Source of the DNA: an uncultured Candidatus Micrarchaeota archaeon
GTDB taxonomy: Archaea; Micrarchaeota; Micrarchaeia; Burarchaeales; Fermentimicrarchaeaceae
Assembly: GCA_903884505.1 (NCBI GenBank)
Contig: CAISET010000030.1
Span: 29,701 to 93,700 of the forward strand
Direction of reading: 5' to 3'
Length of the DNA stretch: 64,000 nt
This document shows positions 1,633 through 57,068 of this stretch, piece after piece. The notes beneath the pieces were generated by a model. The model had not been told where the DNA came from and did no database searches. It was given only the letters and a program-made list of their open reading frames with translations. A program made the position numbers and the translations under genes. How positions within the stretch are numbered: position 1 is the stretch's first letter; the number at the start of each line of letters is the position of its first letter.

Positions 1633-1669
1633 AAGCTACTCCGTCAATCATGACCTTTCGGTTCATCCT

Positions 1670-1991
1670 GGGACGGTGCGATCATCGCCGGCTAATACTC
1701 TGATTCGCAACTTTAAAAACAAGCCGGAAGCCGTGGAGGTTCAGGAACCAAGGATGTCCGACCGAGGAGCGAAGCGACGACCGAGGACACCATTGGTTCT
1801 GATGGGACGGTGCGATCATCGCCGGCTAATACTCTGATTCGCAACTTTAAAAACAAGCCGGAAGCCGTGGAGGTTCAGGAACCAAGGACGTCTGCGGGAG
1901 GAGCCCGCGACAAGCTTCGCCCCGTGGGGCGAAGGTGTCCCTTTGCGCTGAAGCGCAAAGAGGACGACCAAAGACACCATTGGTTCTGATG
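1670..1991 (+). repeat. Tandem duplication of an ~88-bp unit. Each unit carries a TTTAAAAA promoter-like box and is followed by a hairpin-module cassette closed by GAACCAAGG...CCATTGGTTC.
   Basis: Unit copies sit at ~1670-1758 and ~1804-1892 and are near identical. Cassette 1 is ~1745-1803 and cassette 2 is ~1878-1991. Cassette 2 contains the palindromes cttcgccccgtggggcgaag and ctttgcgctgaagcgcaaag. Both end with gacaccattggttctgatg. Confidence 0.7.
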
Positions 1992-2026
1992 CAGGCTTTT
2001 AAATTCCCACCGAGAATTAACCGCCC

Positions 2027-2512
2027 GTGGCAAGGAAACTGAAGGCCGGGTTCTTCTCATTCACAGGCGACGAGGGCTGCATGATAGTCCTGCTGGAGCT
2101 CATAAGCGACAGGTTCGACGAGCTCTCGCAGAAGATGGAGATAGCCTACTGGCACGTGCTCCGCTCGAAGAAGTGGCGGGACATAAATGATTTCGACGTG
2201 GCGATTATCGAGGGCGCGGTTTCCACCAACGGCGAGGTGGAGAGGCTGAAGGACATACGTTCCCGCGCGAAGAAGGTGGTTGCGGTCGGCTCTTGCGCAA
2301 CAACCGGCGCGCCATCGAACCACAGGAACTTCTTCGATGAGAGGAGGCTCGGGGAGATAGACAGCGTCATCCGCAGGTTCGGCTACAGAGAGAAGGTGCA
2401 GCCTCTCAAGGATTTTGTGAAAGTTGATGACGAGGTGCCGGGCTGCCCGGTAATGGAGGAGCCTTTCCTCCAGGTCATGCAGAAATATTTCAAGGAGTTC
2501 GGAGTGGGATGA
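2027..2512 (+). CDS. [NiFe] hydrogenase small subunit with proximal cluster only (HoxY / sulfhydrogenase-delta-like, group 3)
   Basis: 161 aa with 'GDEGC', 'GSCATTG' and 'PGCP' Cys motifs. GTG start ~25 bp after a TTTTAAATT box. Confidence 0.75.
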   Translation: MARKLKAGFFSFTGDEGCMIVLLELISDRFDELSQKMEIAYWHVLRSKKWRDINDFDVAIIEGAVSTNGEVERLKDIRSRAKKVVAVGSCATTGAPSNHRNFFDERRLGEIDSVIRRFGYREKVQPLKDFVKVDDEVPGCPVMEEPFLQVMQKYFKEFGVG

Positions 2513-3799
2513 ATGCACGACGCTGACTTTGAGATAGCGGTCGAGAGCCTCTCGAAGATTGAGGGGCACGCCAACCTAGTGGTCTCCGTGCACGAGGACC
2601 GCGTGGTGGATGCGAGGCTGGAGATAGACGAGAGCAAGAGATTCTACACGCAGGCGATACGGGGGAAGCCCTACGCCGCGCTCCCGCAGATGGTCTCGAG
2701 GATATGCGGAACCTGCAGCACGGCGCACCTCCTCTGCTCGATGGAGGCGGTCGAAGAGGCGGTCGGCATAGTGCCCTCAGAGCAAGTGATGACTGTCAGG
2801 AAGCTCGCCATGTATGCCGCGTGGATAAGGGACCACGCGATGCACCTTTACTTCTTCTCCCTGCCGGACCTTCTCGGGAAGGACTCTGCGCTCGAGTTCG
2901 ACGGCAAGGAGCACGAGCTCCTCCACGATGCGCTCAAGGTGAAAGGGGCAGGGAACAGGTTCGCCAAGCTCATAGGCGGAAGGGCCGTGCACCCCACCTA
3001 CTTCCAGCCCGGGGCCGTCACGAGGCTGCCGAAGAAGGAGGAGGCGAAGGCAACCATCAAGGAGCTGCGGGAGATAAGGCCGATGGTCCTCAAGCTCATA
3101 GACCTGTTCTACCATTCTGGGCAGGAATTCCACAGGACCACGCACTTCGCTGCGGTGGTAAATAACGACTACAGCTTCTGCGGAGAGGAGATAATGCTGT
3201 CGAGCGGGATGTCCGTGAAGGAGGACGACTACTTCAACCACCTGATGCGCGTTGTCCTTCCCTACTCGACCGCCACTGGGTTCGCCTTCGAGGGCTCGGC
3301 ATTCATGGTAGGCGCGCTCGCGAGGATGGATCTGAACAGGGGAAGCCTTCATCCAGACACGAAGAAGGACGCTTCACAGCCGATGAGCGCTTTCCCGACG
3401 AAGAACATCTTCCGCAACAACCTCGCCCAGGCGATAGAAATACTCCACGCGATAGACGCCTCATGCGAAATCCTCGAGCGCACCGACTTCAAGGAGGAGC
3501 AGCCAGCGAAGCCGCAGAGGAAGGGAGGCGTTGGGATGGCGGCGATCGAGGCACCGCGCGGAATTCTTTTTTACCAGGTTGATGTTGGCGAGGACGGGCT
3601 CGTGCGCGACGGCACGCTCGTAATCCCCACGCAGCAGAACCAGATAAACATGGTGAAGGACATGAAGACGGTCGTGCAGGCGAACATCAGGAAGGACCAT
3701 GAGGAGATAAGGAAGGAGCTCGAGGCTTTGATACGCGCCTACGACCCTTGCATGAGCTGCGCCTCCCACTTCCTGAAGATAAAGTGGGTAAAAGCCTAG
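2513..3799 (+). CDS. [NiFe] hydrogenase large (catalytic) subunit
   Basis: N-terminal 'RICGTCSTAH' and C-terminal 'DPCMSCASH' Ni-Fe ligand motifs. Start overlaps the small-subunit stop (TGAATG). Confidence 0.85.
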   Translation: MHDADFEIAVESLSKIEGHANLVVSVHEDRVVDARLEIDESKRFYTQAIRGKPYAALPQMVSRICGTCSTAHLLCSMEAVEEAVGIVPSEQVMTVRKLAMYAAWIRDHAMHLYFFSLPDLLGKDSALEFDGKEHELLHDALKVKGAGNRFAKLIGGRAVHPTYFQPGAVTRLPKKEEAKATIKELREIRPMVLKLIDLFYHSGQEFHRTTHFAAVVNNDYSFCGEEIMLSSGMSVKEDDYFNHLMRVVLPYSTATGFAFEGSAFMVGALARMDLNRGSLHPDTKKDASQPMSAFPTKNIFRNNLAQAIEILHAIDASCEILERTDFKEEQPAKPQRKGGVGMAAIEAPRGILFYQVDVGEDGLVRDGTLVIPTQQNQINMVKDMKTVVQANIRKDHEEIRKELEALIRAYDPCMSCASHFLKIKWVKA

Positions 3800-4160
3800 C
3801 GAGCTCGGCAAGCGCCTTTTTTTCAGGGTACTCTGGGGGAATTCCCAGGATACGCACCTTCCCCAGCATCCCCATCTTCGCCAGAATCTTCAGGTCCAGC
3901 GCCAGGTCAAAATCATGCATCGATGCGGAAGGAGGAAGCTCGAGCCGGCCGATGTCCTTGTTTGTGAGCATCCTGACCTTCCTTATCCCATAAACCGCAT
4001 CAATCGCCACGAACCCTTTCGCGCCCTCCTCTTCGATATCCTCATTTGGGTCGAACTCCACGAACTCGATTTTGGGGAATTTCTTCCGCAGCCTGCCTAT
4101 CAGCCTGAGCGGAAGGCTGTCCTCGGGAATGAGCGGGTTGCCGAGGACAAGGACGCGCAT
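3687..4160 (-). CDS. Hydrogenase maturation endopeptidase (HycI/FrhD family). The C-terminus may be shorter than called.
   Basis: 'MRVLVLGNPLIPEDSLPL' and 'FDLALDL' motifs. The called 3' end overlaps the hydrogenase large subunit by ~110 bp with a low-complexity tail, which may indicate a frameshift or read-through. Confidence 0.6.
   Translation of the reverse strand: MRVLVLGNPLIPEDSLPLRLIGRLRKKFPKIEFVEFDPNEDIEEEGAKGFVAIDAVYGIRKVRMLTNKDIGRLELPPSASMHDFDLALDLKILAKMGMLGKVRILGIPPEYPEKKALAELARLLPTLSSGSGRRSSCKGRRRVSKPRAPSLSPHGPS
3811..3825 (+). terminator. Oligo-T archaeal terminator after the hydrogenase genes
   Basis: gcgccttttttt, located 12 bp after the large-subunit stop. Confidence 0.4.
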
Positions 4161-4173
4161 GCAACCACTCCGC

Positions 4174-7100
4174 TCAGTTGAACGGCACAAGCGCCCAGTA
4201 GCTCTGGCATGGGTCGCCGTCGCCCGCGCACATCTCACCAGGATATGCGATTTCGGTTTTCACCACAAGGTATTTGGTGCCGTCCCAAACATCAACCGGT
4301 ATGTCAAGCCCTGAAAGCGTCGTGGTGACCGGCGATTCGCTTGGGCTCAGGTGCGGGCCGCCCGGAATCTCCTGGACCGCATGCTGATTGGCGTCCCTTA
4401 TCACTATTGAGTTAACCTGCAGTGCGGTGCCCCCTTCGCCCGAGGCGGCAGTAATGTCCTGGAACATCGACTCCGCGTCCGCGTCGCTCACAGCATCGAT
4501 GAGTGCAGGGCCCGAGTGCAGGGTGTAGCTTATCTGGTGGATTACATGGTCGTCTGTGTACTTTATCTCATAATCGACCCTGAAGAACCCGTACCAAACA
4601 GCAGCGCACGGGCACCCCTCTCCTGGCTCGTAGACGTGGAGGTGCGCATAGAAGACCGAGCTGCCGGTCTTCGTTCTCATGGCCGGCGCATTCGTGACAC
4701 TCACGGTCGCAGTATCACTCGCGACCGCGCCATTGTCATCGGTCACAATCACGCTTACTGTGCGCGTTCCTGTGCTTGAGTAGGCATGGGATGCGCCTTC
4801 AGGCCCGGTCGTGGCGGTCTGCCCGTCCCCGAAGTTCCAGACCATGGAAACGATGTGTCCGTCCGGGTCGGAGGCGTAGACTGGGAAGGTGCTTTCAACA
4901 TTAGTGTACATGCTCGTGTCCTCAAGCTGGACGGTTGGGGCGACATTCTGCGCTATTTCGATTGTCGAGCTCGCAGTGTCGGTTCCGCCGTCAGTGTCAG
5001 TGACAGTCACCTCAATCGTGTGCGTGCCCGGGGTTGTGAACTGGTGGTCGATGGCCTGCCCAGTGTAGTCGTATCCCTCCGAGTCCTTTGAAACCCCGTC
5101 GAACTTCCATGCGCAGCTGAACCAGGCGAAGTCAGGGTAGTCCGGGTCGGTTGACCTCTCGCAGCTGAACTGCACCGGCTGATTCCGCAAGGCATCCGTT
5201 GCGCTCTGGTTGATGACCGCATTAGGAAGCTGGTTCGCGTACAAGGTGGCGGTTGCCTGGGCCGCGTTGTTGTCATCGGTAATCTCGGTAACGGTGTTGT
5301 CCGGGTCCACAATCGCATTGAAGGTGTAGCTGCCCGCAGGGGTGCTGGAGTTGAACAGGTACCCGAACCTGGCACTGGAGTTTGCGCCGGCATTTATGGA
5401 GGGGATGGCCAGTTCCCCGAAGGTGGCGCCGTTCACAAGAAGCCTTACGGGAACGTTCTGCGCCCTGTCCGTGCCGCCGTTGTATACCGCAACATACACG
5501 CTCATCTCCTTGTTGCGGCCAGGATTGCTCGGGATTATCGGGTGCCGCGGGGAGGTGGTTATGGAAGCCGAGAGGTCGGGAAGCCTTGCGTTAAGGGCAA
5601 GCGCCCCCTGGTTGTTGCTGAAGTCGGACTCGTAAATCGCCTCATCCTCGTTCGCCTTCACTATTATTACGGGGTTCGCGCTTATCCCTGCGGGGACCGT
5701 CCAGGTGATGGTTGCAGTTGTCTTTCCGCCCGCGTTGAGGGTCACGTTCTTCTCCCCGATGAGGGTCTCGCCCTCGGTCGGGTGCCTGCTGTAGAACCTG
5801 ATTACCGCGCGCTGCGCCTTCGCGTTGCCGATGTTGCTCACGTTCGCCTTGATTGTCACCTGGCTGCCCACCGCGACGTTGCCGGTCACCGAGATGTCGT
5901 TCCCGGAAAGCTCCAGGTCTGGCAGGAAAACAGTGACGTTCTTCTGCGCCTCGTTGTTCGTCTTGTTCAATTCGCCGATTGCGTTCCAGGGGTCGACCCT
6001 AACTAGGAATGTCGCCATCTGCACACCGGCAGGGATGGTCCAGTTCACCGCTACCTGCGAATTGGTCTTCGCGCTAATCTTGCGCACGGTGATGTTGGCG
6101 AGCGATGAGAATGGCCCGCCATCCTGCGAGATGTAGAATGCCACAAGAACATTTTCCGCAGCGAGCGTGCCGCTGTTCCGAACAGCTGCCTTCACACTCA
6201 CCTTGTCACCCACCGCAGGGCTCGCGGGGTTGTAGGTTATGCTGCTGCTGTTGATCGAAAGGTCGGGGTAGAGCAAGTCGACAGGAATAGTCTTCATTGC
6301 GATGTTGTTGTCCTCGTTCGTCTCGCCTATTTCATTCTCAGGGTCAACGGTCACCCCTATCGGGAGTGCGCTGGTTCCCGCAGGCACGATGAAAGTCACC
6401 CTCACGGTCTTGGATGTTCCGGGCGCGATTGACGCAATCGTTGCGTTCCCTATCACCGGGCCGCGGATGGTCGTCCTGTGCCTGCGCATCAGCTCCTCAA
6501 TCAGCAAGGCCCCTGCGCCATGCCCGGGCACAACCTCCTGGTCCGAGCCCTGCGCCGTGTCCCTGTACTCGTCTGCGTTCTCCACAATCTGGAATATCAC
6601 CCTCACGTTCTGCGCGGTCACTGCGCCGTTGTTGTAGACCTTTGCTGTGATTGCAACCGTGCTTCCCGTTCTTACAGATGAAGGTGCGTAGGTTATTCCG
6701 GATGCGTTGATTGAAAGGTCGGGCGCCATGCCTTCGGCTGAAACCGTGTGGTGCGCGGCATTGTTCCCCTCGTCCGCTTCGCTTATCCTGTTCTCCGGGT
6801 CAACGGTGACTGTGAACTGCGTGTTTCCGGCAGCGGGCAGCGTTACACTCACAAGGCCCCTGCCTCCCGCGGAGATGGAGGAGATGGTCTTGGTGGTTGT
6901 CGTGCTCTCGCTCTGCACCTTCACCTTCACGCTTGTCGCCTTCGCGGTCCCGGTGTTGCTGACGTAGATGTTCAGCGTCACCTTCATCACGCCGCTTGTT
7001 TCCTTCAGCGTGTGCGTGATATCCGCATCGGTAATCACAAGCTCCGGCCTGGGCGCAGTGCCATAGGCAACAGTCGAATTCAGGAGGTTGTTGGATTCGT

Positions 7101-7707
7101 CTGACTCACTGATTGCATCCGCCGGGTCAACATCAGCAATAATCTGGTATGCGCCGGCTGCGGCTGGCGGAGGACACGTTATCGAAACGGTGGAGGAGCC
7201 CGATGCGCTTATGGAGGAGATAGTCTTGCTCTGCGTGACGCCGTCGGCGCACGTGAACTTCACCAGCACGTTCTGCGCTGTCGCATCCCCCAGATTCTTA
7301 ACATACGCCTTCACGGAAACGTTCTTGTCGAGCGTAGTATTATTGGGGGTGACGGTCAGCTTTGTTATTGTGAGATCCGGGAATGAAACCAAAGTGGCGA
7401 ATGTGTAGTCAGTCGAGTTTTCGGAGTATGTCGAGTTAACCTGGCACATGAGCTTGTAGTGATAGGTGCTGTTCGCGGTGAGGCCTGAGATTGAGAGGCT
7501 GTGCGCAGTTGTTTTCGCGCTCTTCAAAGAGGTCTTGCCGTAGCTCGTGTTAATGCCATAAACGAGCTTCGATGAGCAGTTGATGTCCGTGCTCCAGGTG
7601 ATGTTCGCCTTGGTGGTTGACGCATTGGCCGCGACATCAGAAAATGTGACTGCGAACGCGGAGGTTGCAAGCGCGATTAAGGCGACAAAAGCAATCAGTT
7701 TCTTCAT
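4174..7707 (-). CDS. Large secreted surface protein with FN3-like, multiple CARDB-like and PKD domains
   Basis: Signal peptide 'MKKLIAFVALIALATSAFA'. Repeated 'PDL..SxxxItxxP....G..VTI.A.V.N.G...A' CARDB-like units. PKD-like 'WNFGDGQTATTG...VTDDNG'. Confidence 0.7.
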   Translation of the reverse strand: MKKLIAFVALIALATSAFAVTFSDVAANASTTKANITWSTDINCSSKLVYGINTSYGKTSLKSAKTTAHSLSISGLTANSTYHYKLMCQVNSTYSENSTDYTFATLVSFPDLTITKLTVTPNNTTLDKNVSVKAYVKNLGDATAQNVLVKFTCADGVTQSKTISSISASGSSTVSITCPPPAAAGAYQIIADVDPADAISESDESNNLLNSTVAYGTAPRPELVITDADITHTLKETSGVMKVTLNIYVSNTGTAKATSVKVKVQSESTTTTKTISSISAGGRGLVSVTLPAAGNTQFTVTVDPENRISEADEGNNAAHHTVSAEGMAPDLSINASGITYAPSSVRTGSTVAITAKVYNNGAVTAQNVRVIFQIVENADEYRDTAQGSDQEVVPGHGAGALLIEELMRRHRTTIRGPVIGNATIASIAPGTSKTVRVTFIVPAGTSALPIGVTVDPENEIGETNEDNNIAMKTIPVDLLYPDLSINSSSITYNPASPAVGDKVSVKAAVRNSGTLAAENVLVAFYISQDGGPFSSLANITVRKISAKTNSQVAVNWTIPAGVQMATFLVRVDPWNAIGELNKTNNEAQKNVTVFLPDLELSGNDISVTGNVAVGSQVTIKANVSNIGNAKAQRAVIRFYSRHPTEGETLIGEKNVTLNAGGKTTATITWTVPAGISANPVIIVKANEDEAIYESDFSNNQGALALNARLPDLSASITTSPRHPIIPSNPGRNKEMSVYVAVYNGGTDRAQNVPVRLLVNGATFGELAIPSINAGANSSARFGYLFNSSTPAGSYTFNAIVDPDNTVTEITDDNNAAQATATLYANQLPNAVINQSATDALRNQPVQFSCERSTDPDYPDFAWFSCAWKFDGVSKDSEGYDYTGQAIDHQFTTPGTHTIEVTVTDTDGGTDTASSTIEIAQNVAPTVQLEDTSMYTNVESTFPVYASDPDGHIVSMVWNFGDGQTATTGPEGASHAYSSTGTRTVSVIVTDDNGAVASDTATVSVTNAPAMRTKTGSSVFYAHLHVYEPGEGCPCAAVWYGFFRVDYEIKYTDDHVIHQISYTLHSGPALIDAVSDADAESMFQDITAASGEGGTALQVNSIVIRDANQHAVQEIPGGPHLSPSESPVTTTLSGLDIPVDVWDGTKYLVVKTEIAYPGEMCAGDGDPCQSYWALVPFN

Positions 7708-7708
7708 T

Positions 7709-8254
7709 TCAATCACCCTCAATCTTCTGCCCGCTGGTCGCATTGACCTCGCAGACCGTTGCGCCTGATATGAATGTCCAGACCGGTGTCCCATCCCTCA
7801 TCTCAATTGAGCAGTCACTATCACTCATCCTGCAGGCTGAGGCGGCCTGCGTGCTGTCAACCCACTGCCCGCCGAGCGGCTGGCTGAAAGAGAACGTTGC
7901 GTCGCGCATGCTTGCTGCGCCCCCTGGCACGCTGACGACGTAGCCCCTGCCCGCTGCAACGGAATCGAAGTGGTAGTCCCACTGCGGCGCTTTCCCGTCC
8001 CCACCGCATGCGCCCTGAACTCCCACAAGCTGCGCATCGCCCCTCAGCCAGGTTATTCCACCGGCAGCAGCCGTGCGGCCTTCCGAAGCGGAAAATGGCG
8101 CCATCTCAGGCGTCTCGTTTTCCAGTGGCGTTTCCGTGGGTGTAATTTCGGGGGTTGGGCTCCCTCCAGTTGGCGGCTGCGGAGGGGTTATGCAGCATCC
8201 CGAAAAGATAACGCATGCGCAAATAAGCGCTAGTAGTAAATGCTCCGGCTTCAT
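7709..8254 (-). CDS. Putative lipoprotein (lipobox-like FSGC)
   Basis: 'MKPEHLLLALICACVIFSGCCITPPQPPTGGSPTPEITPTETP', followed by a globular domain. Confidence 0.5.
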   Translation of the reverse strand: MKPEHLLLALICACVIFSGCCITPPQPPTGGSPTPEITPTETPLENETPEMAPFSASEGRTAAAGGITWLRGDAQLVGVQGACGGDGKAPQWDYHFDSVAAGRGYVVSVPGGAASMRDATFSFSQPLGGQWVDSTQAASACRMSDSDCSIEMRDGTPVWTFISGATVCEVNATSGQKIEGD

Positions 8255-8291
8255 GTCTCGACCACCTTTGATTGTTATGCGTGCGCGCCCG

Positions 8292-9895: not shown

Positions 9896-9940
9896 GGCAT
9901 TCCTTTCGGCAGCCGGCTATTAATTGGTTTGGGGGTAGAG

Positions 9941-10060
9941 GGAACCAGCGATGTTGCCGAGCAGGGCGAGGCAACAGGCAGTCGCCAACGAAGTTGGCGA
10001 TGCGCAACGTGAGTTGCGTAGTTGTCGCCGAAGGCGACTTGAAGCCATCGGTTGGTTCCT
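9941..10060 (+). repeat. Hairpin-module MITE-like element (copy C), with GAGGGAACCAGCGATG...CATCGGTTGGTTCCTC inverted termini
   Basis: ~100 bp near-identical to the reverse complement of 20975-21072. Contains the hairpins gtcgccaacgaagttggcgat, gcgcaacgtgagttgcg and tcgccgaaggcga. Confidence 0.75.
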
Positions 10061-10546
10061 CTAAATTCTGTCCCCGAAGAAGTCGATTAACAGGTGAAGG
10101 AGGTAGCCAAGGGCGGCGAAAACGCCCACGAGCAGCGAATCATCTACTGAGAGATTGAGAAGAAGAAGGAAGGCGAAAACCAAAATTCCCCAGAGGAAGG
10201 CCGCTGACCACGAATGCATGACGCCGCGGTGGCCCGGGATGGAGAGTTCGGCAAGGGCGAGCAGCAGGAAGGGAAGGAAGAGCGCAAGGAGCGGGGAGAT
10301 TGCCGAGAATGTGGAGTAGAAGAGGACTACAATCAGGATTCCGAGCAAAAACACGGCAAGCCGGAAAGCCCTCCTGGGTTTTGATTTCCTGCTGTCTATG
10401 TCAGGCAGGAGCGAGCTGATGATGAAGACGAGCGAGGCAACGGCAGCGGTGGGGACTGGAAAGCCATGCATCTCGGCGATGAACGCGGATATGAATACTG
10501 CGCCAAGTATTCCGCCGATGAAATGCTCCCGAAACCCGGTCTCCAC
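10061..10546 (-). CDS. Membrane-bound metal-dependent hydrolase-like protein (DUF457/YdjM family)
   Basis: 161 aa polytopic, with conserved His/Asp 'LLPDIDS' and 'HLLIDFFGD'. Confidence 0.5.
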   Translation of the reverse strand: METGFREHFIGGILGAVFISAFIAEMHGFPVPTAAVASLVFIISSLLPDIDSRKSKPRRAFRLAVFLLGILIVVLFYSTFSAISPLLALFLPFLLLALAELSIPGHRGVMHSWSAAFLWGILVFAFLLLLNLSVDDSLLVGVFAALGYLLHLLIDFFGDRI

Positions 10547-10575
10547 GAACTCTTGTCACGGTGTGTCTAAATAAG

Positions 10576-11568: not shown

Positions 11569-11583
11569 CCTGCGGTCCCTCCG

Positions 11584-12774: not shown

Positions 12775-12847
12775 AAAATACCCCGAGGAAGGTATTTTTG
12801 CCAGCGAAGGCTTATAATTAGAAATCCTTGTTTGGGGTTTTGGTGAT

Positions 12848-13531: not shown

Positions 13532-13539
13532 GGCGCCGC

Positions 13540-14346
13540 ATGTGCAAGCTCTGCGAGTACGCAAGGACGAACGCGGCCTTCCGCAGTGACATGGCCAAGG
13601 GCGCGCTCGCGGACCTGGACCGTTTCTTCAAGACGAAGGCCCATGCGCCCGAGAGCACATCCCTCTTCTCGAACATGCCGGGCTGGGCCGCGCTGAAATC
13701 CGACTTCGCGCTCTTCGAGCCCCTTGCGGCATTTCCCAACCCCCAGTCTTACTACCAGCCCCTATATATAAACGGAGAGAAGCTGCGGAACGACTGGCAG
13801 AGCGGCTGGACCCGCAGCATCGGCTTCCTCCCGAACGGCAACCTCCTGCTCTTCGCGAAGGCTGTCGAGCGCGGGAGGTTCGCAGCCGCGCTGGAGACCT
13901 TCCAGCACCTCTTCATCGTCGAATTCAGGCCGGATGAGCTGCAGGTGGAATACTCGCCCCCGCAGTTCACCCTCCGCGCGGAAGAGGTCACGAAGGAGGG
14001 CACAACTCTCATTAGCGGTGCCAAGGTTTCGCACACATTTTCGTTCGCCTTCTCCCACCTCGCTGCGGAGAAGAGCGCTATGCGCGCAGATGCGATCAAG
14101 CAGAGCGCGTTCCTCCGCCAGGTCCTGCGCAGGGGGAAAACCGAGGAGGAGGCTGCGAAGGACAGGGGCATCACGGACGCCCCGAAGTCTGACTTCGAGA
14201 AGTTCATCATCACAACCCTCCATTATGCCCCCCACCCGCTCCTAATGAGGGGGTTCAAGGAGATGGGCTACGAGAATCGGTTCGCCCTGCAGATGGACGT
14301 GCCGAAATTCCTTGATGAGCACTTCAAGAGGCTGAAAGGGGCTTAG
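13540..14346 (+). CDS. Hypothetical protein
   Basis: 268-aa ORF with coding-like composition and no recognised motifs. Confidence 0.4.
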   Translation: MCKLCEYARTNAAFRSDMAKGALADLDRFFKTKAHAPESTSLFSNMPGWAALKSDFALFEPLAAFPNPQSYYQPLYINGEKLRNDWQSGWTRSIGFLPNGNLLLFAKAVERGRFAAALETFQHLFIVEFRPDELQVEYSPPQFTLRAEEVTKEGTTLISGAKVSHTFSFAFSHLAAEKSAMRADAIKQSAFLRQVLRRGKTEEEAAKDRGITDAPKSDFEKFIITTLHYAPHPLLMRGFKEMGYENRFALQMDVPKFLDEHFKRLKGA

Positions 14347-14362
14347 AGCTTCTTCTCAACCG

Positions 14363-14600
14363 AGAAACCCCCGATGCGCAGGTTTGAGTCGCCTTCGGCG
14401 ACAGCTGCGCAACTTCTGTTGCGCATCGCTCTTCGTTGCCAACGCGATTTGCGCTCGTTGCGCAACAAGCATCGCCCTTTGGGGCGATGATGCCCCCTTG
14501 TGCTTTCGCACAAGGAGGGATGCGTCGCTGTTCGCCCGCTGGCGAACATGCGAACGAACTCGCTCGCCGCGCATATCGTCGGTTTCTACGTTACTTCCGG
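14363..14600. mobile_element. Hairpin-module MITE-like element (copy D) flanked by an 18-bp direct repeat that duplicates the AMMECR1 gene 3' end
   Basis: Direct repeat TYAGAGYTTCTTCTCAAC at 14343-14360 and 14601-14618. Start of D matches the reverse complement of the 3' part of copy C (agtcgccttcggcgaca...gcgcaact...gttgcgcatcgc). Confidence 0.7.
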
Positions 14601-15200
14601 TCAGAGTTTCTTCTCAACTACTTTTCCGCCAGGCGTTTCCTCAGAGAAGATTTGCGCCTGGAATTTCAAAACCCTTACCCCTGGCTTCAGCCACGAATCC
14701 GGCGGAAGCCCTGCCTTCCAGCAGGCCTGGCAAAGGAATTCCTCGCTCCCCCATTTCTGCTCGACAGGCACCTGGGGGAGAAGCAATCCGGATTGCCGTC
14801 CTGCCTCAATAATCAGCCCGTCCCTGCCAACCTTCACCTGCTCAACGAGCTTCTTCCTGTCCTTCGCCTCAATAGGCTCGGGCACGGTCAGCACCGAGAC
14901 CTCAATCATGATGTTTTTCAATTCTTCCGCAGTCACTTCCGGGAACCTCGGGTCGCCTGTCGCAGCCTCAACCGCCATCTCAACAACCGATTCAGCGAGC
15001 GGCCCCTGCGGCCTGGGATAGCCTATGCAGCCCTTCAGCTCGCGCTCAGGGTAGCTTTCAAGAGTCACGAACACGCCCCTCGGTTCCATCAGGTGCTTCG
15101 GCGCGCCGCCGGGTGGCAGCCTGCTTCCGTTCTCAAGGTACGCGGCTATCGCCTTTCTCGCGAGCCGCACGAGGAATTCGCCGTCCGAAATCTTGAGCAT
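14601..15200 (-). CDS. AMMECR1-domain protein
   Basis: 'GCIGY', 'PRGVFVTL' and 'LLLPQVP' motifs, 199 aa, typical archaeal AMMECR1. Confidence 0.8.
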   Translation of the reverse strand: MLKISDGEFLVRLARKAIAAYLENGSRLPPGGAPKHLMEPRGVFVTLESYPERELKGCIGYPRPQGPLAESVVEMAVEAATGDPRFPEVTAEELKNIMIEVSVLTVPEPIEAKDRKKLVEQVKVGRDGLIIEAGRQSGLLLPQVPVEQKWGSEEFLCQACWKAGLPPDSWLKPGVRVLKFQAQIFSEETPGGKVVEKKL

Positions 15201-15388
15201 GCTTAGGATGAAGTGCAGCCTGCTAAATAAACATTAGCTCGCATTTTACTCAACTACAAGACAATAGATTTAAATATATTTCGGCACAAAACGATTCCGC
15301 TGGTTCTTCGTCTTTTGAGGTGGTTGCACCACCTCAGCTGTGCGGGAACTGTGAAAAGACTGGTTCTGTAAATTCTGAGGTGGTGTGG

Positions 15389-18300
15389 ATGTCGACTTCC
15401 GTGAACTCCGCGAAGTGGTTCCTGCTGGCAGCGCTGCTGCTGGCAGGCATGGCATGCGCAGCGGGCAATTCGGACATACCCGAAAGCTACAACAGGTTCT
15501 GGGAAGGCCCGAACACGGGATTATTTCCATGCATAACCAACCTCCCGCTTCTCAACCTCGAGAAAACCGATGTGATGGATGCGCCGGCAATTGCACGGCT
15601 TGAACTTCCAGCGGGCTTCTCGGCGGTGAGGGAAAAGATGCAGAACGCAAGCGAAAAAATCAAGGCGGCCAAGGAAGGCTCCGTGCGTTTTCTCGGCATA
15701 TCGTTCTTAATCTTCGAGGTCGGAGAGAAAGTCCGCCTTTATGCAGATGGAAATCCCTACCCGATGTTGGCGAGCACGACATTTTGCGGGATGTCGGAAG
15801 AATCAGCGGATATATGGATAATAACCGAACCAGCCATGTACTGGAAGTGCCATGAGCTTTGGCAGGCGAACGAACAGGCCTGCAAGGCAATGGGCGATTC
15901 CCTTGACGCGCTGCAGGCGGCGGCATACGCCTCAAACGATGCGCGGGATGCAGCCGCTTCGCACCTTGAAACCCTCGGGAGGATGGGCGCCGATTACGGG
16001 AACTACTCCGGCTCCGCGAGAGGCGTTTATTCCGATTCAAAGGAAGCCCTGGAGGCTGACCCAATCATCGCTTTTAACGGCTCGCGGGAGATAACGCTGA
16101 GATACGATGACCAGGCGCCTAGGTTCGCTGCCGCATACGTTTCCGCATACGATGTGAAGACGGCATTCGAGAACGGCTCTGCCCAGTTCGAACGGCCGGA
16201 TTCCTACGCCGCGGCGATAGACCTTATGGCGGGGAGGGACGAGAACCTGGTGACCGGCTGGGCCGCAGTCTACTGGAACATCGATTCCGCAATCTCCGGC
16301 ATGGAAAGCGAATGGAACGGCAGTGAACGGGCGGCGGATGCGGAATATAGCGACGCGGATTCGGCCGTGGCCGCACTGGAGGAAGACGGTTACTCCAAGA
16401 TTACCGCAGACCTCATCTCGAATTTCAGCGAGGCAGCCACGGGCCCAATCCACGGCTCATTCAACGCGGCGCCTCCTGATGAGCGGGTGGCGAACGCAAG
16501 GGCGATGCTGCAGGGCGCAAATGCGAACATAACGGAAGCGCGCCGCCTTTCAAATGCGGAGTACGAAGAGGATTACCTCGCGCGGGCGATTGAAACTAGC
16601 CAGCGGGCGCACAGCTCCATCACGTCCGCGAAAAGCATGGCTGAGGAGGCGAAGGCGGAGGTTGAGGAGATAATCTCGGCAGCAGACGGGCTCTATGGCC
16701 TGAAGAGCAGCGAGGTGAGGAGCGCAATCGATTCCTTCAGCACAGAAACTCCCGGAAGCGCGAGGCTGAAGGCGAATGCCGAAACGGACTACCGAGAAGC
16801 GGTTGGGCTCGCGGCTACAGCGAGAGCCGGAACTTCCGGAAAGCACCTTGCCGGCCTTGCAGCTGCGCTTGGGAAGCTCGAATCCGCAAAGCTCTGGCTC
16901 AGCGATGAGAACGTGAGCATCGCAATCAGAAGGGATGCGGCCCGCGATGAACTGGCGAGGCTGAATGCAACGCTGAACAAGGCGGAGCATGACGGGATTG
17001 GCGTCACCTCCGAGCGGGACTGGCTCAACAATGCCATGCAGGGGCGTGACTCCGGGACTGCAGAAGATATGGAAAACTTCAAGGAGAAGGCGGAGCTGGC
17101 TGAGGAGGAGGTTTATGCGAAGGCAGCTGCGCAGTTCGGCTATCTTGACTGGCAGGTCTCCGCGCTTGACTCGACAATCTCCGCAATCCGCAGCTACCGC
17201 TCCATCCTGGGGAGCGCTGCCGAGCTCGAGGCGAAGTTCCGCGAATTCGACGAGCTGAAGAGGAATTACGCGAGTGGGGGGACGCTGGTTCCCGAGAAGG
17301 CGCTTGGCCATTATCTAGAGATAGCGGACAAGCTTGATGCGATTTCGCAGGAAGTGGAAAGCAACAAGGCGAAGATGATCCAGGAAATGATGGAGAAGAG
17401 CGCCAGATATGATGTGGCCTGGGAGGGCGAGCCAATCCTCGATGAAGAGATGTCGGCGCTGGTCTCGGTAAGGCTCGCGAACGAGCTTCCGTTCGGCACA
17501 AACAGCTCGCTCAGCGTTTCCATTCCCGGAGATTTCCCATCGGGCCTTTCCGTGGTCTCAAAAGATGCGGCAATCTTCTCCGTTGATGCGACCGGCACGA
17601 AGATTACGGCCTACTTTACCTCGGTTTCCGCAGGCAGCGCATATTCCATTTCGCTGAAGGGAAGCGGCGCGGAGCCGGCACGCAGCGTCGGAAGGCAGCA
17701 GGGGAACATAACCTCCCTCCACGAGCAGGAGCTTGTTGGCAGCGAAACGCTGGAGTTCGAGGCCCTGCGGGACCTTGACCGCCTGGCAATTCCTATGGAA
17801 ATCCCGGAAGGCACGGGCAGGCTTTCCGCGGAGATGGAGAACGGCAGGGTTGCGGAAGTGGTGAATTCCGATGGAATGGCACTTGTCTCCGCCGAAAGGG
17901 TGCGCAAGGGAAGAGGTAGCGTCACACTGGCATACCACATCCCGAACCCCTACTTAGTAACCGAGGGCGATGCGGAAGTGCGGAAAATAGACAACCTGAC
18001 CGCACGCATCACCTACAATGTTACGGTATCTTCGCGCGCCATGGACCTTTCGGACGTTCCAGTCCTCATATTCGTCCAGAACGTGAGCGGCGAGGAAGGC
18101 GTTTCCGTCCGCGGGCTGGATGGCGCATCGCTGCGTAACTTCGAGCAGCAGCCTTCGCAGGGAGGCGTGTCAGTCTCCTGGAGCATCAGGAGTCTTGGCA
18201 AGGGGGAGAGCGCAACCTACGAAGTCTCTTACGCGATAAGCGACCCCGGCGAATATGCCGAGTGGTTTTATTCGCAGGATGCTTTGCTCATCAATTCGCT

Positions 18301-19612
18301 TGATGAGGCCGGTCTCATTCCCGAGGCGCGCTTGGATGCTTTGAAGGGAAAGCTCGCGGACGCCCGCGGCCTGCTCGACAGCCAGAAATGTATGGAGGCG
18401 ATAGCGGAACTGAAGGGGCTCAGTGCGGACGCGCAGAAAGCAGCCAAAGACTCGCAAATTCAGGAGACTGCGAGGGCAGGTTACTACGATGAATTGGCGC
18501 AGTTTAAGAAGGAGAAGGCGGCGCTCGGGAATCTGCACGATGGGCTCTTCTCCGCGGGCTTGGACAGCGAGGCACGCAAAGTACAAACTGCGCTCGATGC
18601 TGCGGGCGAATCCGAGGATGAGGCGGCAGGGCTTGCGGACGATTTGAATTTTGGCTCCGCAAAGGCGAAAATTTCCGACGCGCGCAAGTCGCTCCATGTC
18701 GACCTTTCGGGCCCGCTCAACAACAGGGTGGAGTCGCTTTCCAAGGAGGCTGACCTGCTGAATAAGCGGGGCCATGCCCTTTCGCTCCTGGACAATGAGG
18801 CAAACCTCAGCGATTTCCAGGTGGAACTCGCGGGAATCCGCTCGTCCATCTCCGATGCGGACTATTCTTCGGCAGCAACCGGCATCGCGGGACTGAACCG
18901 CTCGCTTTCGGCAAAGGAAGGCGAAACGGACGCGGGCTTCGGCCGGCTTGTCCCGGAGTTCGAAGGCTATGCGCGCGAAGTCTCCGAATTGAAGATAGTA
19001 TTCGGGGCGAACTTGGTGGAATTCTCAAAATCTTCGAAAAACGAGACCATCCTGGGGCAGGCGAGAAACGATTTGGCCGAGCTCGGCAGGCTCGATTCCC
19101 TGCTCTCAAACTTCTCGAGCTCCCCGGAGAAGCCGAAGTTCCTAGAGGCGAACGCAGAGAAGCTCGCAGGGATAAGCGCGGAGATCGCCACGCTGAACGG
19201 CACGAGCGCCAGCCTCGCCCAGGCAACGCAGGCCTACGCCAAGCTCGCGAACAGCTCCTTCTCGGAGGCCAGCCTGAAGCTCGAGCAGGCGCGGAAAATA
19301 GTCCCTGCAAGCGGGCAATACGCGGATAGGCTGCAGAACCTCACCTCAATCCTCAGCGATGCCGAGTCCGCACTCACTGCAAACAATTACGCGGATGCGG
19401 CAGTCCTTTCGGAGAAGGTAAGGGCGGGGGCGGAGCTGCTGCTTTCCGCAGCCTCGCAGGTCGAGCAGAAGGAGGCGGGCGCCGGCTTTTCGTTCCAGCC
19501 GGTCTATCTCCTTCTTCCGCTCCTCTTCTTCCTCGCGCTCGGCTACGTCTTCCTGAAGAAGAGGCCCGAGAAACCGCAAGAGGCCAAGCCAATCCAGCGC
19601 CTAGAATTCTAA
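15389..19612 (+). CDS. Giant alpha-helical, coiled-coil-rich surface protein with signal peptide and C-terminal TM anchor
   Basis: Probable start 'MSTSVNSAKWFLLAALLLAGMACAAG'. C-terminus 'FSFQPVYLLLPLLFFLALGYVFLKKRPEK'. AT-rich TATA region upstream contains the palindrome gaggtggttgcaccacctcag. Confidence 0.65.
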   Translation: MSTSVNSAKWFLLAALLLAGMACAAGNSDIPESYNRFWEGPNTGLFPCITNLPLLNLEKTDVMDAPAIARLELPAGFSAVREKMQNASEKIKAAKEGSVRFLGISFLIFEVGEKVRLYADGNPYPMLASTTFCGMSEESADIWIITEPAMYWKCHELWQANEQACKAMGDSLDALQAAAYASNDARDAAASHLETLGRMGADYGNYSGSARGVYSDSKEALEADPIIAFNGSREITLRYDDQAPRFAAAYVSAYDVKTAFENGSAQFERPDSYAAAIDLMAGRDENLVTGWAAVYWNIDSAISGMESEWNGSERAADAEYSDADSAVAALEEDGYSKITADLISNFSEAATGPIHGSFNAAPPDERVANARAMLQGANANITEARRLSNAEYEEDYLARAIETSQRAHSSITSAKSMAEEAKAEVEEIISAADGLYGLKSSEVRSAIDSFSTETPGSARLKANAETDYREAVGLAATARAGTSGKHLAGLAAALGKLESAKLWLSDENVSIAIRRDAARDELARLNATLNKAEHDGIGVTSERDWLNNAMQGRDSGTAEDMENFKEKAELAEEEVYAKAAAQFGYLDWQVSALDSTISAIRSYRSILGSAAELEAKFREFDELKRNYASGGTLVPEKALGHYLEIADKLDAISQEVESNKAKMIQEMMEKSARYDVAWEGEPILDEEMSALVSVRLANELPFGTNSSLSVSIPGDFPSGLSVVSKDAAIFSVDATGTKITAYFTSVSAGSAYSISLKGSGAEPARSVGRQQGNITSLHEQELVGSETLEFEALRDLDRLAIPMEIPEGTGRLSAEMENGRVAEVVNSDGMALVSAERVRKGRGSVTLAYHIPNPYLVTEGDAEVRKIDNLTARITYNVTVSSRAMDLSDVPVLIFVQNVSGEEGVSVRGLDGASLRNFEQQPSQGGVSVSWSIRSLGKGESATYEVSYAISDPGEYAEWFYSQDALLINSLDEAGLIPEARLDALKGKLADARGLLDSQKCMEAIAELKGLSADAQKAAKDSQIQETARAGYYDELAQFKKEKAALGNLHDGLFSAGLDSEARKVQTALDAAGESEDEAAGLADDLNFGSAKAKISDARKSLHVDLSGPLNNRVESLSKEADLLNKRGHALSLLDNEANLSDFQVELAGIRSSISDADYSSAATGIAGLNRSLSAKEGETDAGFGRLVPEFEGYAREVSELKIVFGANLVEFSKSSKNETILGQARNDLAELGRLDSLLSNFSSSPEKPKFLEANAEKLAGISAEIATLNGTSASLAQATQAYAKLANSSFSEASLKLEQARKIVPASGQYADRLQNLTSILSDAESALTANNYADAAVLSEKVRAGAELLLSAASQVEQKEAGAGFSFQPVYLLLPLLFFLALGYVFLKKRPEKPQEAKPIQRLEF

Positions 19613-19662
19613 CAAGAGCATTCGCATCCCGCAAAGAATTCGCGGGCAGCGCATTCGCGAGC

Positions 19663-19832
19663 TCAGCAGGAAAACTCGCATAACCTTTCTTTGGTGTCGC
19701 CCTTCGGGACGAATTCGCCTTCGGGCGAAATGTCCGCGTCCGAGACGCGGACGCTCCTCGCCATCCAGCAGGGGCTCGTCGCTCGACATCCTAAGAAACG
19801 TTAACGAAAGAATTCAGCAGGAAAACTCGCAT
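19663..19832. mobile_element. Small hairpin-rich element (G) flanked by the 19-bp direct repeat TCAGCAGGAAAACTCGCAT, which duplicates the 3' end of the Cas4-like gene
   Basis: Direct repeats at 19663-19681 and 19814-19832; both encode 'CEFSC*' on the minus strand. Internal hairpins tcgccttcgggcga and gtccgcgtccgagacgcggac. Confidence 0.55.
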
Positions 19833-20494
19833 CCTTCCCTGAATTCACAGACAAGGCATTTCGCAGGCTCCCCGCACGCGAGCTCCCTCCGCTCGAATCT
19901 TCCCTCAAGTATTCCCGCAAACCTTTCAAGCCTGGAAGCCACAAACCCCGCGTCGAACGGCTTGGGCTCTCCTTTTCCAAGTGGATGCCTTCCCAGCAAA
20001 TCCCGCTCGATTATCCGGTAGTAGATATCGAAGCCGCGCAGGACTCCCTCCCCGAGTTCCCTTCCCCTCACCCTCATAATCCCGTTCGCCAGCCCGTTGC
20101 AGTAAGCGGACAGCTGGCATTCGTATTTCCCCGAGAACAGCCCGCCAGCCCTCGATGTGAATTTCTCATCGCAGACAACAACCGACCTTCCGAATTTCAG
20201 CAGCTTGTCGAGCCTTCCGGAGAAGGTGAGGCCGCCAAACGCAAATCTCACGCTCACCGCCTCATTCGGGAACTCGAGCGCGCTTCCCTCGTCCTGCAGC
20301 CGGCGCAGCAGTTCATCAACGCTGACAGCCTCGTATTCCTTCTCCGCATCCTCCTCCGCGGAGATGGCATGCTGCCTAGTGCCAATTGCCACGCAGGGGC
20401 GGAAGTGCGGCCTCCTTTCCTCAAGAAAATGATAGACGGGCTTGAGGCCGCAGAACTCCACGTCCGCGAATTTGGAGATAGGGACGGCTCTCAT
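19814..20494 (-). CDS. Cas4-like / RecB-family PD-(D/E)xK nuclease with Fe-S Cys cluster (DUF83-like), standalone
   Basis: N-terminal Cys ('FCGLKP'), 'GRLDKLL', 'VVVCDEKF', QxxxY motif ('QLSAY'), C-terminal 'CGEPAKCLVCEFREGC'. Confidence 0.65.
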   Translation of the reverse strand: MRAVPISKFADVEFCGLKPVYHFLEERRPHFRPCVAIGTRQHAISAEEDAEKEYEAVSVDELLRRLQDEGSALEFPNEAVSVRFAFGGLTFSGRLDKLLKFGRSVVVCDEKFTSRAGGLFSGKYECQLSAYCNGLANGIMRVRGRELGEGVLRGFDIYYRIIERDLLGRHPLGKGEPKPFDAGFVASRLERFAGILEGRFERRELACGEPAKCLVCEFREGCEFSC

Positions 20495-20497
20495 AGC

Positions 20498-20623
20498 CTA
20501 TCCGACCTTCAGCTCAAGCCGCGCCCCATTCCGCTGTATGACGGCTCCGGTGCTCACCCTTTCCAGCCTCGCAATCAGCTCCTCCAGCTGGTCGAACGTC
20601 AATTCGGTCACATCCATTTTCAT
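20498..20623 (-). CDS. Small 41-aa protein immediately upstream of the Cas4-like nuclease
   Basis: 'MKMDVTELTFDQLEELIARLERVSTGAVIQRNGARLELKVG'. RBS gaggtgagggca precedes the ATG. The longer ORF call runs through repeat element E and is unlikely. Confidence 0.4.
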   Translation of the reverse strand: MKMDVTELTFDQLEELIARLERVSTGAVIQRNGARLELKVG

Positions 20624-20627
20624 TGCC

Positions 20628-20780
20628 CTCACCTCGGAACCCCGGTTGGCGCTGCGCTCGCTTGCGCGACCACGCAACACCTTCGGTGTTGCGCAAACGC
20701 ACCTTCGCTTGCGCCATATCCAGTCGCCTCCGGCGACTGCCTGTTGCGCGTTGCGCAACATCCTCGGTTCCTGAACCTCC
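20628..20780. repeat. Hairpin-module MITE-like element (copy E)
   Basis: GGAACCCCGGTTGG...CCTCGGTTCC termini. Modules gcgcaacaccttcggtgttgcgc and gtcgcctccggcgac. Ends ggttcctgaacctcc, as copy F does. Confidence 0.7.
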
Positions 20781-20829
20781 GTGAGCTGGTGCTGGACTGC
20801 TTTTAAAGAAGGGGAAGCGCACGTGGTTT

Positions 20830-21080
20830 CCAGTAAGAACCAATGGTTGGCATCCTCGCTGGCGCTCGTTGCCATATCCGGTCGCCTCCGGCGATTGATT
20901 TCGCCTTGCGGCGAAAGCTGTCGCTTTGCCGCGGGCAAAGCGCCATTGAGTCGCCTTCCGGCGACAGCTCAAATCGCCTGCGGCGATAACTGCGCAACTC
21001 ACGTTGCGCATCGCCAACTTCGTTGGCGACTGCCCGTTGCCTCGCGCTGCTCGGCAACATCCTTGGTTCCTTAACCTCCA
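20830..21080. repeat. Hairpin-module MITE-like element (copy F, longest; about seven tandem hairpin modules)
   Basis: GAACCAATGGTTGG...CCTTGGTTCCTTAACCTCC termini. 20975-21072 is the reverse complement of copy C. Modules gtcgccttccggcgac, gctttgccgcgggcaaagc, tgcgcaactcacgttgcgca and tcgccaacttcgttggcga. Confidence 0.75.
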
Positions 21081-29486: not shown

Positions 29487-29546
29487 GCTTGCGTTTAGGC
29501 AGGCGCCCCTGGAAGGCCTATTAAGCCTTATCGACAAAAGCAATTC

Positions 29547-30038: not shown

Positions 30039-30088
30039 GCGCAATCTGATTTTAAAACCATCGCCCCAAACGTACTTCGGGTGTCACC

Positions 30089-56968: not shown

Positions 56969-57068
56969 GAACTGAAGACTTTGCCCACAGAAAGGCGGTT
57001 TTGAAGCAAACATTTATAATATACAAATTGTTTATTATTGCGTGTTTTCTGAAAGTGTGACGCAGAGG

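Follow-up and report, generated by a model that had tools for sequence, protein, structure and literature searches.

The closest described architecture to the elements reported here is that of the BOX elements (boxA, variable boxB and boxC) of Streptococcus pneumoniae and S. suis. The elements in question are short hairpin-bearing repeats in 64 kb of DNA from an uncultured Candidatus Micrarchaeota archaeon (contig CAISET010000030.1, positions 29,701 to 93,700), and this whole stretch is called the window below. BOX elements are small intergenic composite repeats, enriched downstream of genes and presumed to be mobile but non-autonomous, with no proven enzyme (PMC3049150). Their terminal modules pair, while the internal stem-loops vary in number and fold independently of the termini (PMC3049150). 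Pairing terminal modules and a variable number of internal stem-loops are also found in the Micrarchaeota elements. The likeness between the streptococcal and archaeal repeats is architectural only, and no similarity in sequence is claimed. The modules here are many different hairpins of 15–26 nt, not tandem copies of one 45-nt boxB, and unlike BOX the elements show 18–19-nt target duplications and a purine bias in the loops of one strand. With a probability of about 0.6, they are a family of small, non-coding, non-autonomous insertion elements of a narrow Micrarchaeota lineage, behaving like BOX, bacterial interspersed mosaic elements (BIME), Correia-type repeats and miniature transposable elements with inverted repeats (MITEs).

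The closest archaeal precedent is a MITE-like C/D box small RNA (sRNA) element of Pyrobaculum calidifontis. It has about 15 copies, is lineage-restricted, and combines an RNA-like core with imperfect inverted repeats and modular rearrangement (PMC6009581). In contrast, a C box (RUGAUGA) and a D box (CUGA) spaced for guides of about 12 nt are missing from the Micrarchaeota elements, whose core consists of a hairpin cassette instead of a guide RNA. A C/D box sRNA was rejected as their identity: GCGACGA and a terminal CUGA can be read in the sequence, but 18 nt separate them and a 5' C box is lacking.

The elements also resemble repetitive extragenic palindromic (REP) sequences, BIMEs and REP doublets forming hairpins (REPINs), which are GC-rich extragenic palindromes arranged in mosaics, often at gene 3' ends. 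REP and BIME sequences at gene 3' ends affect mRNA stability. However, REP units are single hairpins in alternating orientation without target duplication, whereas here one closing helix surrounds co-oriented hairpins. A REP/BIME or REPIN mobilised by a REP-associated tyrosine transposase (RAYT) was rejected based on the co-orientation of hairpins within a copy, the target duplications and the absence of a Y1 transposase from the window. The REP 5' end is GTAG (PMC2817692); copies C and D begin with the GTAG-like GTAGA, which is reminiscent of it.

Similar to classical MITEs (Correia, RUP and Sulfolobus SM1–4), the elements are short, non-coding, multi-copy, highly paired and intergenic, with inverted termini and some target duplications. 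Only such generic features of MITEs fit. Unlike classical MITEs, their termini vary within one genome, the 18–19-bp duplication is not universal, they are GC-rich rather than AT-rich, and they are not known to have a parent insertion sequence (IS).

Copies and architecture of the elements

Each element consists of a 5' leader, a long imperfect closing helix formed by both ends, and an enclosed hairpin cassette. The strand with the 5' leader is defined as the sense strand. Thirteen copies are known: seven in the window (A–G), and six at four further loci on related contigs (L1, L2, L4a, L4b, L5a and L5b). The window copies and the sequences bracketing them are as follows.

1669–1734, no strand: left 66-nt direct repeat flanking A (1669–1770 and 1803–1904 are 95% identical; 0 of 200 shuffles reach the score)
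1710–1718: TATA-like box CTTTAAAAA within the left 66-nt repeat of A
1735–1802, plus strand: copy A, near-minimal, with GGAGGTT leader, helix TCAGGAACCAAGGATGTCC/GGACACCATTGGTTCTGA and cores GAGGAGC and GCGACGACC (83.9 bits, as a copy used in model building)
1803–1868, no strand: right 66-nt direct repeat, between A and B (repeat search and shuffle test)
1869–1989, plus strand: copy B, the minimal form with a 54-nt insertion of two hairpins
9936–10063, plus strand: copy C, with variant termini TAGAGGGAACCA...TGGTTCCTCTA and an interior 92% identical to the 5' part of F
14343–14360, no strand: left 18-nt direct repeat flanking D (TTAGAGCTTCTTCTCAAC), holding the stop codon of a 268-aa gene (0 of 200 shuffles reach the score)
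14361–14600, minus strand: copy D, with seven hairpins predicted by RNAfold, termini AGAAACC...GGTTTCT and a 5' leader of about 11 nt
14601–14618, no strand: right 18-nt direct repeat flanking D (TCAGAGTTTCTTCTCAAC), the last codons and stop codon of AMMECR1
19663–19681, no strand: left 19-nt direct repeat flanking G (TCAGCAGGAAAACTCGCAT; 100% identity)
19682–19813, minus strand: copy G, newly found and more diverged, with the same closing-helix architecture (folding z = -3.4)
19814–19832, no strand: right 19-nt direct repeat flanking G, the last codons and stop codon of a PD-(D/E)XK nuclease gene
20634–20780, minus strand: copy E, with the native TATA box on one side and, on the other, the ribosome-binding site of a 41-aa open reading frame (ORF; 20498–20623, minus strand)
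20781–20833, minus strand: native promoter segment between F and E (ACTGGAAACCAC...CTTTAAAAG), outside the elements and present in the empty site of a related contig
20834–21079, minus strand: copy F, the largest in the window, beginning 8 nt past the stop codon of a 169-aa gene

The leader GGAGGTT is shared by A, B, E, F and every foreign copy. Leaders are about 6–14 nt long; in the copies bounded by flanking repeats, 10–14 nt precede the helix and 0–4 nt follow it. The closing helix is about 15–18 bp (TCAGGAACCAAGGATGTC ... GACACCATTGGTTCTGA). Written as RNA, 5' UCAG-G-AACCAAGG-A-UGUC pairs with GACA-CC-A-UUGGUU-CUGA 3'.

The cassette is a run of GC-rich hairpins of 15–26 nt each, numbering about one in the minimal 57-nt form, about one in A, L4a and L5b, and seven or eight in D and F. 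The core motifs of the minimal form are purine-rich: GAGGAGC and GCGACGAC. In copy B, the second of these is interrupted by the 54-nt hairpin pair, CTTCGCCC-CGTG-GGGCGAAG and CTTTGCGC-TGAA-GCGCAAAG. Copy B is near-identical to a copy upstream of radA on another contig (L002). The hairpins of G include GTCCGCGTC-TCG-GACGCGGAC and TTCGCC-CGAA-GGCGAA. About eight hairpins can be read in F, six of them with perfect stems of at least 6 bp, and its loops include GAA, GTGA, GCA, GGAA, CGC, GCAA and GGA. Copies are mosaics: the 5' 60 nt is common to E and L1, the 3' 90 nt is common to L1 and L5a, and C and F are alike over the 5' 100 nt with different ends. The number of hairpins changes through gain, loss and exchange of modules between copies. 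Co-oriented pairs of elements are seen four times (A/B, F/E, L4a/L4b and L5a/L5b).

The original prediction, made from the letters of the window, counted at least six loci, or about six copies per 64 kb. All six are real on rereading the sequence, but the count was too low: with G there are seven copies, of 68–246 nt, all within the first 21 kb. An earlier start of copy E at 20628 was not borne out. The relation of C to the reverse complement of F (102 nt aligned at 92% identity), the match of part of C to D (43 nt at 88%), and the mosaic structure with a varying number of modules (about 1 to 8 hairpins per copy) were all recovered. The proposed termini GGAACC...GGTTCC apply in part. Inverted closing ends are present throughout, while C (TAGAGGGAACC...GGTTCCTCTA) and D (AGAAACC...GGTTTCT) carry variants. 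In the folding check suggested at that time, element-bearing intergenic regions had z-scores from -3 to -8; element-free spacers are mostly near 0, with four between -2 and -3.7.

The 20-nt 5' motif GGAGGTTNAGGAACCAAGGA occurs four times in the window with up to 3 mismatches, against 0.01 expected. The window has 71 perfect hairpins whose stems reach 6 bp or more, and 19 whose stems reach 8 bp or more; the six original copies, amounting to 978 nt or 1.5% of the window, contain 20 and 13 of these, respectively. A covariance model was built from A, B and four foreign copies, and the window was scanned with it without filters. The held-out copies F (E = 2.4e-6) and E (E = 0.019) were recovered with correct strand and ends, and no further confident copy was seen in the window. 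The source is a metagenome assembly, from which chance similarity or an assembly artefact might arise. The same family is present in independent assemblies from ENA and JGI and in a metagenome-assembled genome (MAG) of GTDB, the motif counts are far above shuffled expectation, and the model recovers held-out copies; both chance and artefact can practically be dismissed.

Insertion at gene boundaries

One related contig (L007) is syntenic with the window over the 169-aa gene, the 41-aa ORF, the PD-(D/E)XK nuclease gene, the gene of a large protein, and AMMECR1 (84% identical). At the site of E and F, the spacer is 78 nt in L007 and 464 nt in the window. The L007 spacer (ATAACTGGAAACCAGGTGGGCTTCCCCTTCTTTAAAAGCA...GAGGTGAGAGCGATG) runs collinear with what separates and surrounds F and E in the window. 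Therefore, F entered between the stop codon and the promoter. E entered past the TATA box and before the ribosome-binding site, about where transcription is predicted to start. The native promoter is intact between F and E. In a more distant relative the gap at this site is also 78 nt, based on gene calls only. It was considered whether GGAGGTT belongs to the target rather than to the element, and this was rejected since the sequence is absent from the empty sites. At A/B and at C, synteny is broken in the relatives and they have no matching site for an empty-site comparison.

Target duplications are seen at four copies. G is flanked by perfect repeats (19/19 nt), D by repeats identical at 16 of 18 positions, L4b on its metagenome contig by 19-nt repeats identical at 16 of 19 positions and containing a TATA box, and A by 66-nt repeats. 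In shuffle tests of the flanking repeats, these four gave p of about 0 to 0.005, and the remaining copies were non-significant. Read from the sequence, deletion of D with one of its repeats restores convergent genes with overlapping stop codons (CTTAG). These facts show insertion of the elements as DNA at the boundaries of genes, with 18–19 bp of the target duplicated in several cases. The footprint of insertion is long and not uniform.

Duplications of variable length, together with small deletions, are typical of target-primed reverse transcription in non-long-terminal-repeat elements. A retroelement similar to short interspersed elements (SINEs) could therefore be considered, in which the folded sense RNA is copied into nicked targets by a reverse transcriptase encoded elsewhere. 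The strand-specific structural features, the asymmetric 5' leader, and the variable duplications with occasional small deletions at insertion sites agree with it. However, no reverse transcriptase is found in the window or at any locus, there is neither a 3' A-tract nor a 5'-truncated copy, and three of the four duplications cluster at 18–19 nt, more like a fixed stagger. A retroelement origin is thus quite improbable.

An IS200/IS605-type element was rejected as well. Duplications exist, and the left flanks of the copies differ (GCCGT, TGCGT, CTCAC, CCGGC, CTCAT, GAGGC, GGCGC and GAGAT), so that the insertions do not lie 3' of a fixed tetra- or pentanucleotide.

Conserved fold, strand asymmetry and genomic context

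The sequence of the element ends varies between copies, and their complementarity is always kept. Terminal sequences include TCAGGAACCAAGG, TTAAGGAACC, TAGAGGGAACCA, AGAAACC and AACGTTTCTT. Most copies have TCAG/CTGA as their outermost pairs; F and L2 have TTAAG/CTTA, and C has TAGAG/CTCTA. A C:G pair is replaced by A:U in L2 and F, and a U:A pair by C:G in three of six sequences. In the middle helix, AACCAA/TTGGTT is found in most copies, with TTTCTT/AAGAAA in its place in G and GAACCA/TGGTTC in C. Despite its changed outer helix, G retains GG/CC and TGTCG/CGACA further inside. For the inner helix, most copies have TGTC/GACA, while C has CGATG/CATCG and L4b has GAG..GC/GC..CTC.

Inside the cassettes, the eight differences between C and F break no pair. 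Among them, GTCGCC/GGCGAC is changed to ATCGCC/GGCGAT in a fully compensatory manner, one G-C pair is changed to G.U, and one loop from GAA to GCA. B and L2 differ by two compensatory pairs, one G.U and other changes mostly in loops. Hairpin 1 of E and L1 shows GTTGCGC/GCGCAAC changed to GTTGCAC/GTGCAAC. A sequence-specific transposase would be expected to hold the terminal bases constant; the ends vary here, which speaks for a structural constraint. We infer that selection preserves the fold of one strand and not its sequence.

The loops differ between the two strands. Purines make up 103 of the 129 loop bases (80%) in sense, against 16% on the antisense strand, and loops of the G..A form number 13 of 32 in sense and 0 of 33 in antisense. 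Examples of purine-rich sense loops are GAA, GCA, GGA, GUGA, GGAA, GCAA and GAAA. Mismatches enclosed in helices of the sense strand are G.T in eight cases and A.C in three, a small count that includes some alternative helices. Because the purine bias is on one strand only, it points to a single-stranded form, most likely RNA. A folded transcript would explain the asymmetry, and single-stranded DNA might serve too. With a small sample and many hairpins related by descent, the strand asymmetry is suggestive and no proof in the statistical sense.

The asymmetry bears on a function at the level of double-stranded DNA, where the copies would be protein-binding or cruciform sites, like the REP/BIME sites for gyrase or integration host factor (IHF), or recombination hot spots. 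Perfect palindromes fold equally on both strands, elements are clustered in pairs, and copies lie at synteny breakpoints: Dus is apart from Maf only in this genome, and L007 has two extra genes at the position of G. However, double-stranded function gives no reason for 80% versus 16% of purines in loops or for the excess of G.T over A.C, and no sequence motif is common to all copies as a binding site. Such a function is very doubtful.

In their genomic context, D, F, G, L1 and L5a start 3–40 nt past the point where a co-oriented gene ends with its stop codon. E is part of a 5' untranslated region, and A, B, L2, L4a and L4b are upstream of co-oriented genes or beside a TATA box. L4a abuts the 3' end of a tRNA-Ala gene, and in L004 two small elements bracket the tRNA-Ala gene, which is encoded on the opposite strand. 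L5b ends 1 nt before an intron-containing tRNA gene in L005 (1953–2077; 51 bits with the Rfam tRNA model), which ARAGORN missed. A tRNA scan of the window itself found none. C lies between the stop codon of YdjM (10061–10063, inside the 3' arm of C) and the conserved TATA box of HypC, and D directly downstream of AMMECR1 in sense orientation. The sense strand is probably read as RNA, because most copies sit in sense in the 5' or 3' untranslated region of a neighbour. The TATA boxes near E and C belong to neighbouring genes, and the elements are therefore not demonstrably promoter-bearing. Since spacers in this genome are about 50 nt, selection alone could explain the placement at gene boundaries. 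Of the loci between tandem genes, the only informative contexts, three are co-oriented and one is not.

The promoters are central to a further alternative, in which the copies are independent genes of trans-acting sRNAs with their own promoters, dispersed by gene duplication, for example as a protein or ribosome sponge with GGAGG and purine loops. Transcripts of about 70–250 nt with 5' ends at GGAGG and 3' ends at GGUUCUGA would be implied. In A, B, E and L4a, GGAGG is 25 to 30 nt past a TATA-like box, the purine loops of GNRA/GNA type are on one strand only, and helices are maintained by compensatory change. The leader GGAGGU is complementary to the anti-Shine-Dalgarno sequence. On the other side, the empty site already has the TATA box that precedes E, which therefore is the downstream ORF's native promoter, and the TATA box beside C is the conserved HypC promoter. 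L5b directly abuts L5a and so has no promoter of its own, while D, F, G and L5a lack a TATA box and start 3–20 nt past a stop codon. No oligo-T terminator follows the copies. One to eight hairpins with poor sequence conservation are ill-suited to a single trans function, and the target duplications indicate insertion, not gene duplication. Independent sRNA genes are thus an unlikely explanation.

Several observations were made on the sequences around the copies. The motif ACTGGAAACCAC is located about 10–20 nt upstream of a TATA box in L007 (194–205), the window (20823–20834) and L002 (6431–6442). It occurs at the operon of the 41-aa ORF and the PD-(D/E)XK nuclease with and without an element, and at radA in L002; a variant, ACTGGAACGCAC, is upstream of radA in L001 (about 630–645). 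It may be a shared operator of DNA-repair genes. An archaeal origin-recognition box was rejected for it, as it is a native sequence upstream of a promoter and present in the empty site. There is a hint of target preference, as F, L1 and L2 are all immediately 5' of ACTGGAAACCAC.

In relatives (L018, L019 and L021), Maf and Dus form an operon with Dus as its second gene. In the window (1588–2026) Maf is absent, A, B and a hydrogenase operon are upstream of Dus, and the elements are at the synteny breakpoint. On a contig with a 98% identical Dus, a co-oriented upstream gene overlaps the Dus start, based on gene calls only. The two extra small genes of L007 (1134–1873, compared with 19613–19813 of the window, where G is found) are between the nuclease and large protein genes, and encode an HVO_A0114-like protein and a DUF7718 protein, a toxin-antitoxin-like pair. 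Between D and G, the window encodes a 1430-aa protein (15320–19612) with no confident match to Pfam, NCBIfam or PADLOC; in relatives too, its gene is found in synteny with those of AMMECR1 and the PD-(D/E)XK nuclease. The 41-aa ORF was extended through E by gene callers to 125 aa in some source contigs (20498–20875, minus strand) and to 69 aa in another. The only ORFs crossing elements are those extended through hairpins by a gene caller, and the hairpin elements thus create spurious ORFs in the annotation of these MAGs.

Distribution, mobilisation and meaning

The best named relatives of the flanking proteins are in Candidatus Micrarchaeota. The contigs of the window itself belong to assemblies of lake metagenomes in ENA. 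When 185,579 species genomes were scanned for exact occurrences of the 5' motif, it was found on two contigs of one MAG (uncultured Micrarchaeota, AlinenSediments bin-2344). The same scan of JGI metagenomes found four contigs, which are two loci, each in two sister lake-sediment samples. Together these are four distinct loci on six contigs. Viral contigs contained no match to the 5' motif; the 3' 17-mer had six chance matches there, inside phage coding sequence of 33–43% GC. No match was obtained by blastn against plasmid and phage collections. Carrier genomes are few, and the compared sequence of relatives (about 60 kb) is free of copies; the family is therefore narrow and patchy.

The original prediction did not recognise a described family, and asked for Rfam and for other genomes to be searched. 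Rfam gave no match at gathering thresholds over the window and only chance-level hits on the elements (E above 3), which covers tRNA-like, C/D sRNA, omega-RNA and ribozyme families as well. The plasmid, phage and viral collections and the literature are also without a match, in agreement with that claim, while the related copies in one MAG and the JGI metagenomes answer the question on other genomes. Literature searches on hairpin repeats of archaea and DPANN yielded nothing specific, and no described family of small interspersed repeats came up for DPANN or Micrarchaeota genomes. To our knowledge, few families of small interspersed repeats have been described in archaea overall.

Other structured sequences were tried and rejected. 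A bulge-helix-bulge or kink-turn in the closing helix does not fit, as there are only single-nucleotide bulges and no tandem G.A. A T-arm or tRNA-like 5' end does not fit either, as its stem does not pair. The hairpins abut and differ from one another, and a repeat search showed no regularly spaced identical repeats here, which excludes a CRISPR array.

The reading as a mobile non-autonomous element or a structured RNA family was already given in the original prediction, and is supported by the empty site, the duplications, the paired changes and the strand asymmetry. Its term MITE-like suits the insertions, the target duplications at some copies and the multiple copies, and less so the termini that vary in sequence. 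Several further points weigh against the insertion-element family. Termini unlike the terminal inverted repeats (TIRs) recognised by a transposase, long and non-universal duplications, and the failure to find a partner transposase mean that MITE-like describes behaviour and not a proven membership of the class. E replaces 7 nt of the empty site, and neither E nor F duplicates the target relative to L007. Duplication lengths of 0, 18, 19, 19 and 66 match no single known enzyme, and the unit of 66 nt and element at A/B could be a plain tandem duplication rather than a footprint of transposition. Pfam, NCBIfam and PADLOC scans of the window proteins found no transposase, integrase or reverse transcriptase; Cas1, Y1 transposase and RAYT/TnpA genes are likewise absent from them. 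A search for a long element sharing these ends found none in the window or the related sequences compared. About 60 kb from relatives, whose compared proteins are 65–89% identical, contain no copy. C, which abuts a stop codon, runs antisense to the gene on either side, and transcription is presumed from position only. The 13 copies include many that are kin by descent, so the covariation and loop statistics are not from independent samples.

The elements thus enter as DNA at gene boundaries, either just past a stop codon or about where transcription starts, past the TATA box and ahead of the ribosome-binding site. Several insertions duplicated 18–19 bp of the target. The fold of the sense strand in an untranslated region would be the feature under selection. 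The hairpin cassette would there serve as a compact nuclease-resistant module, stabilising or insulating the transcript. Transcript protection by bacterial REP/BIME is known, and has been proposed for BOX (PMC3049150).

The long and variable duplications suggest an integrase or transposase with a wide stagger, of the IS1634/IS1549 type, rather than a classical enzyme with a short stagger. IS1634 and IS1549 generate direct repeats of 8–514 bp on insertion, and the family is preferentially found in Euryarchaeota (PMC2266710). The likeness is in mechanism only; neither such a transposase nor matching IS ends were found in the data. A Cas1-type integrase or a retro route is also conceivable for the mobilising enzyme. 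Casposons have TIRs, 14–15-bp target duplications and a Cas1 integrase. The 18–19-bp duplications and the insertion at gene 3' ends and beside tRNA genes are reminiscent of casposons. A more specific version would be a lineage-specific mobile structured-RNA element of DPANN archaea, selected for the fold of its sense-strand RNA and inserted with a stagger of about 19 bp at transcription starts, stop codons and tRNA ends. The enzyme would be a Cas1/casposase-like or IS1634-like integrase or a reverse transcriptase, of a kind so far not connected with small non-autonomous elements, and the host would use the cassette to stabilise or insulate untranslated regions; this is a tentative possibility.

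Some other features of the window can be recorded. A TATA box followed by a structured leader of about 100 nt (26326–26459) is upstream of a 172-aa gene of the L7Ae family. The leader contains GATGAGC and TGATGAAC, which are kink-turn/box-C-like, and L7Ae autoregulation could be supposed from them. It also has a solitary hairpin, CGCAACATG-CGAG-CATGTTGCG (26408–26429), like the family module CGCAACACC-CGAG-GGTGTTGCG with two compensatory pairs. A 37-nt direct repeat (56940–56976 and 58474–58510; 95% identical; GTG(T/A)(G/A)CGTCCGGCGGTGATTTCTGTGGTTGAACTGAA) brackets about 1.5 kb. This segment contains two ORFs without Pfam match and ends just before an RtcB gene (58488–59930). A small integrated cassette is one possible reading, and a toxin-antitoxin-like module is another. 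Coding low-complexity repeats at 29193–30949, 48851–49644 and 60693–60832, in predicted surface proteins, are unrelated to the hairpin family. They are Pro/Thr-rich linkers of 12-nt period, with four 69-nt thrombospondin type-3 repeats at 30203–30480.

The results suggest an undescribed family of small interspersed repeats in a DPANN-type archaeon. Three features are unusual for a MITE-like repeat: duplications of 18–19 bp, ends kept in structure and not in sequence, and purine loops of GNA/GNRA type on one strand. They point to a mobilisation mechanism yet to be identified and to a role at the RNA level. In such tiny and tightly packed genomes, insertions at stop codons and transcription starts reveal the positions that tolerate extra sequence.

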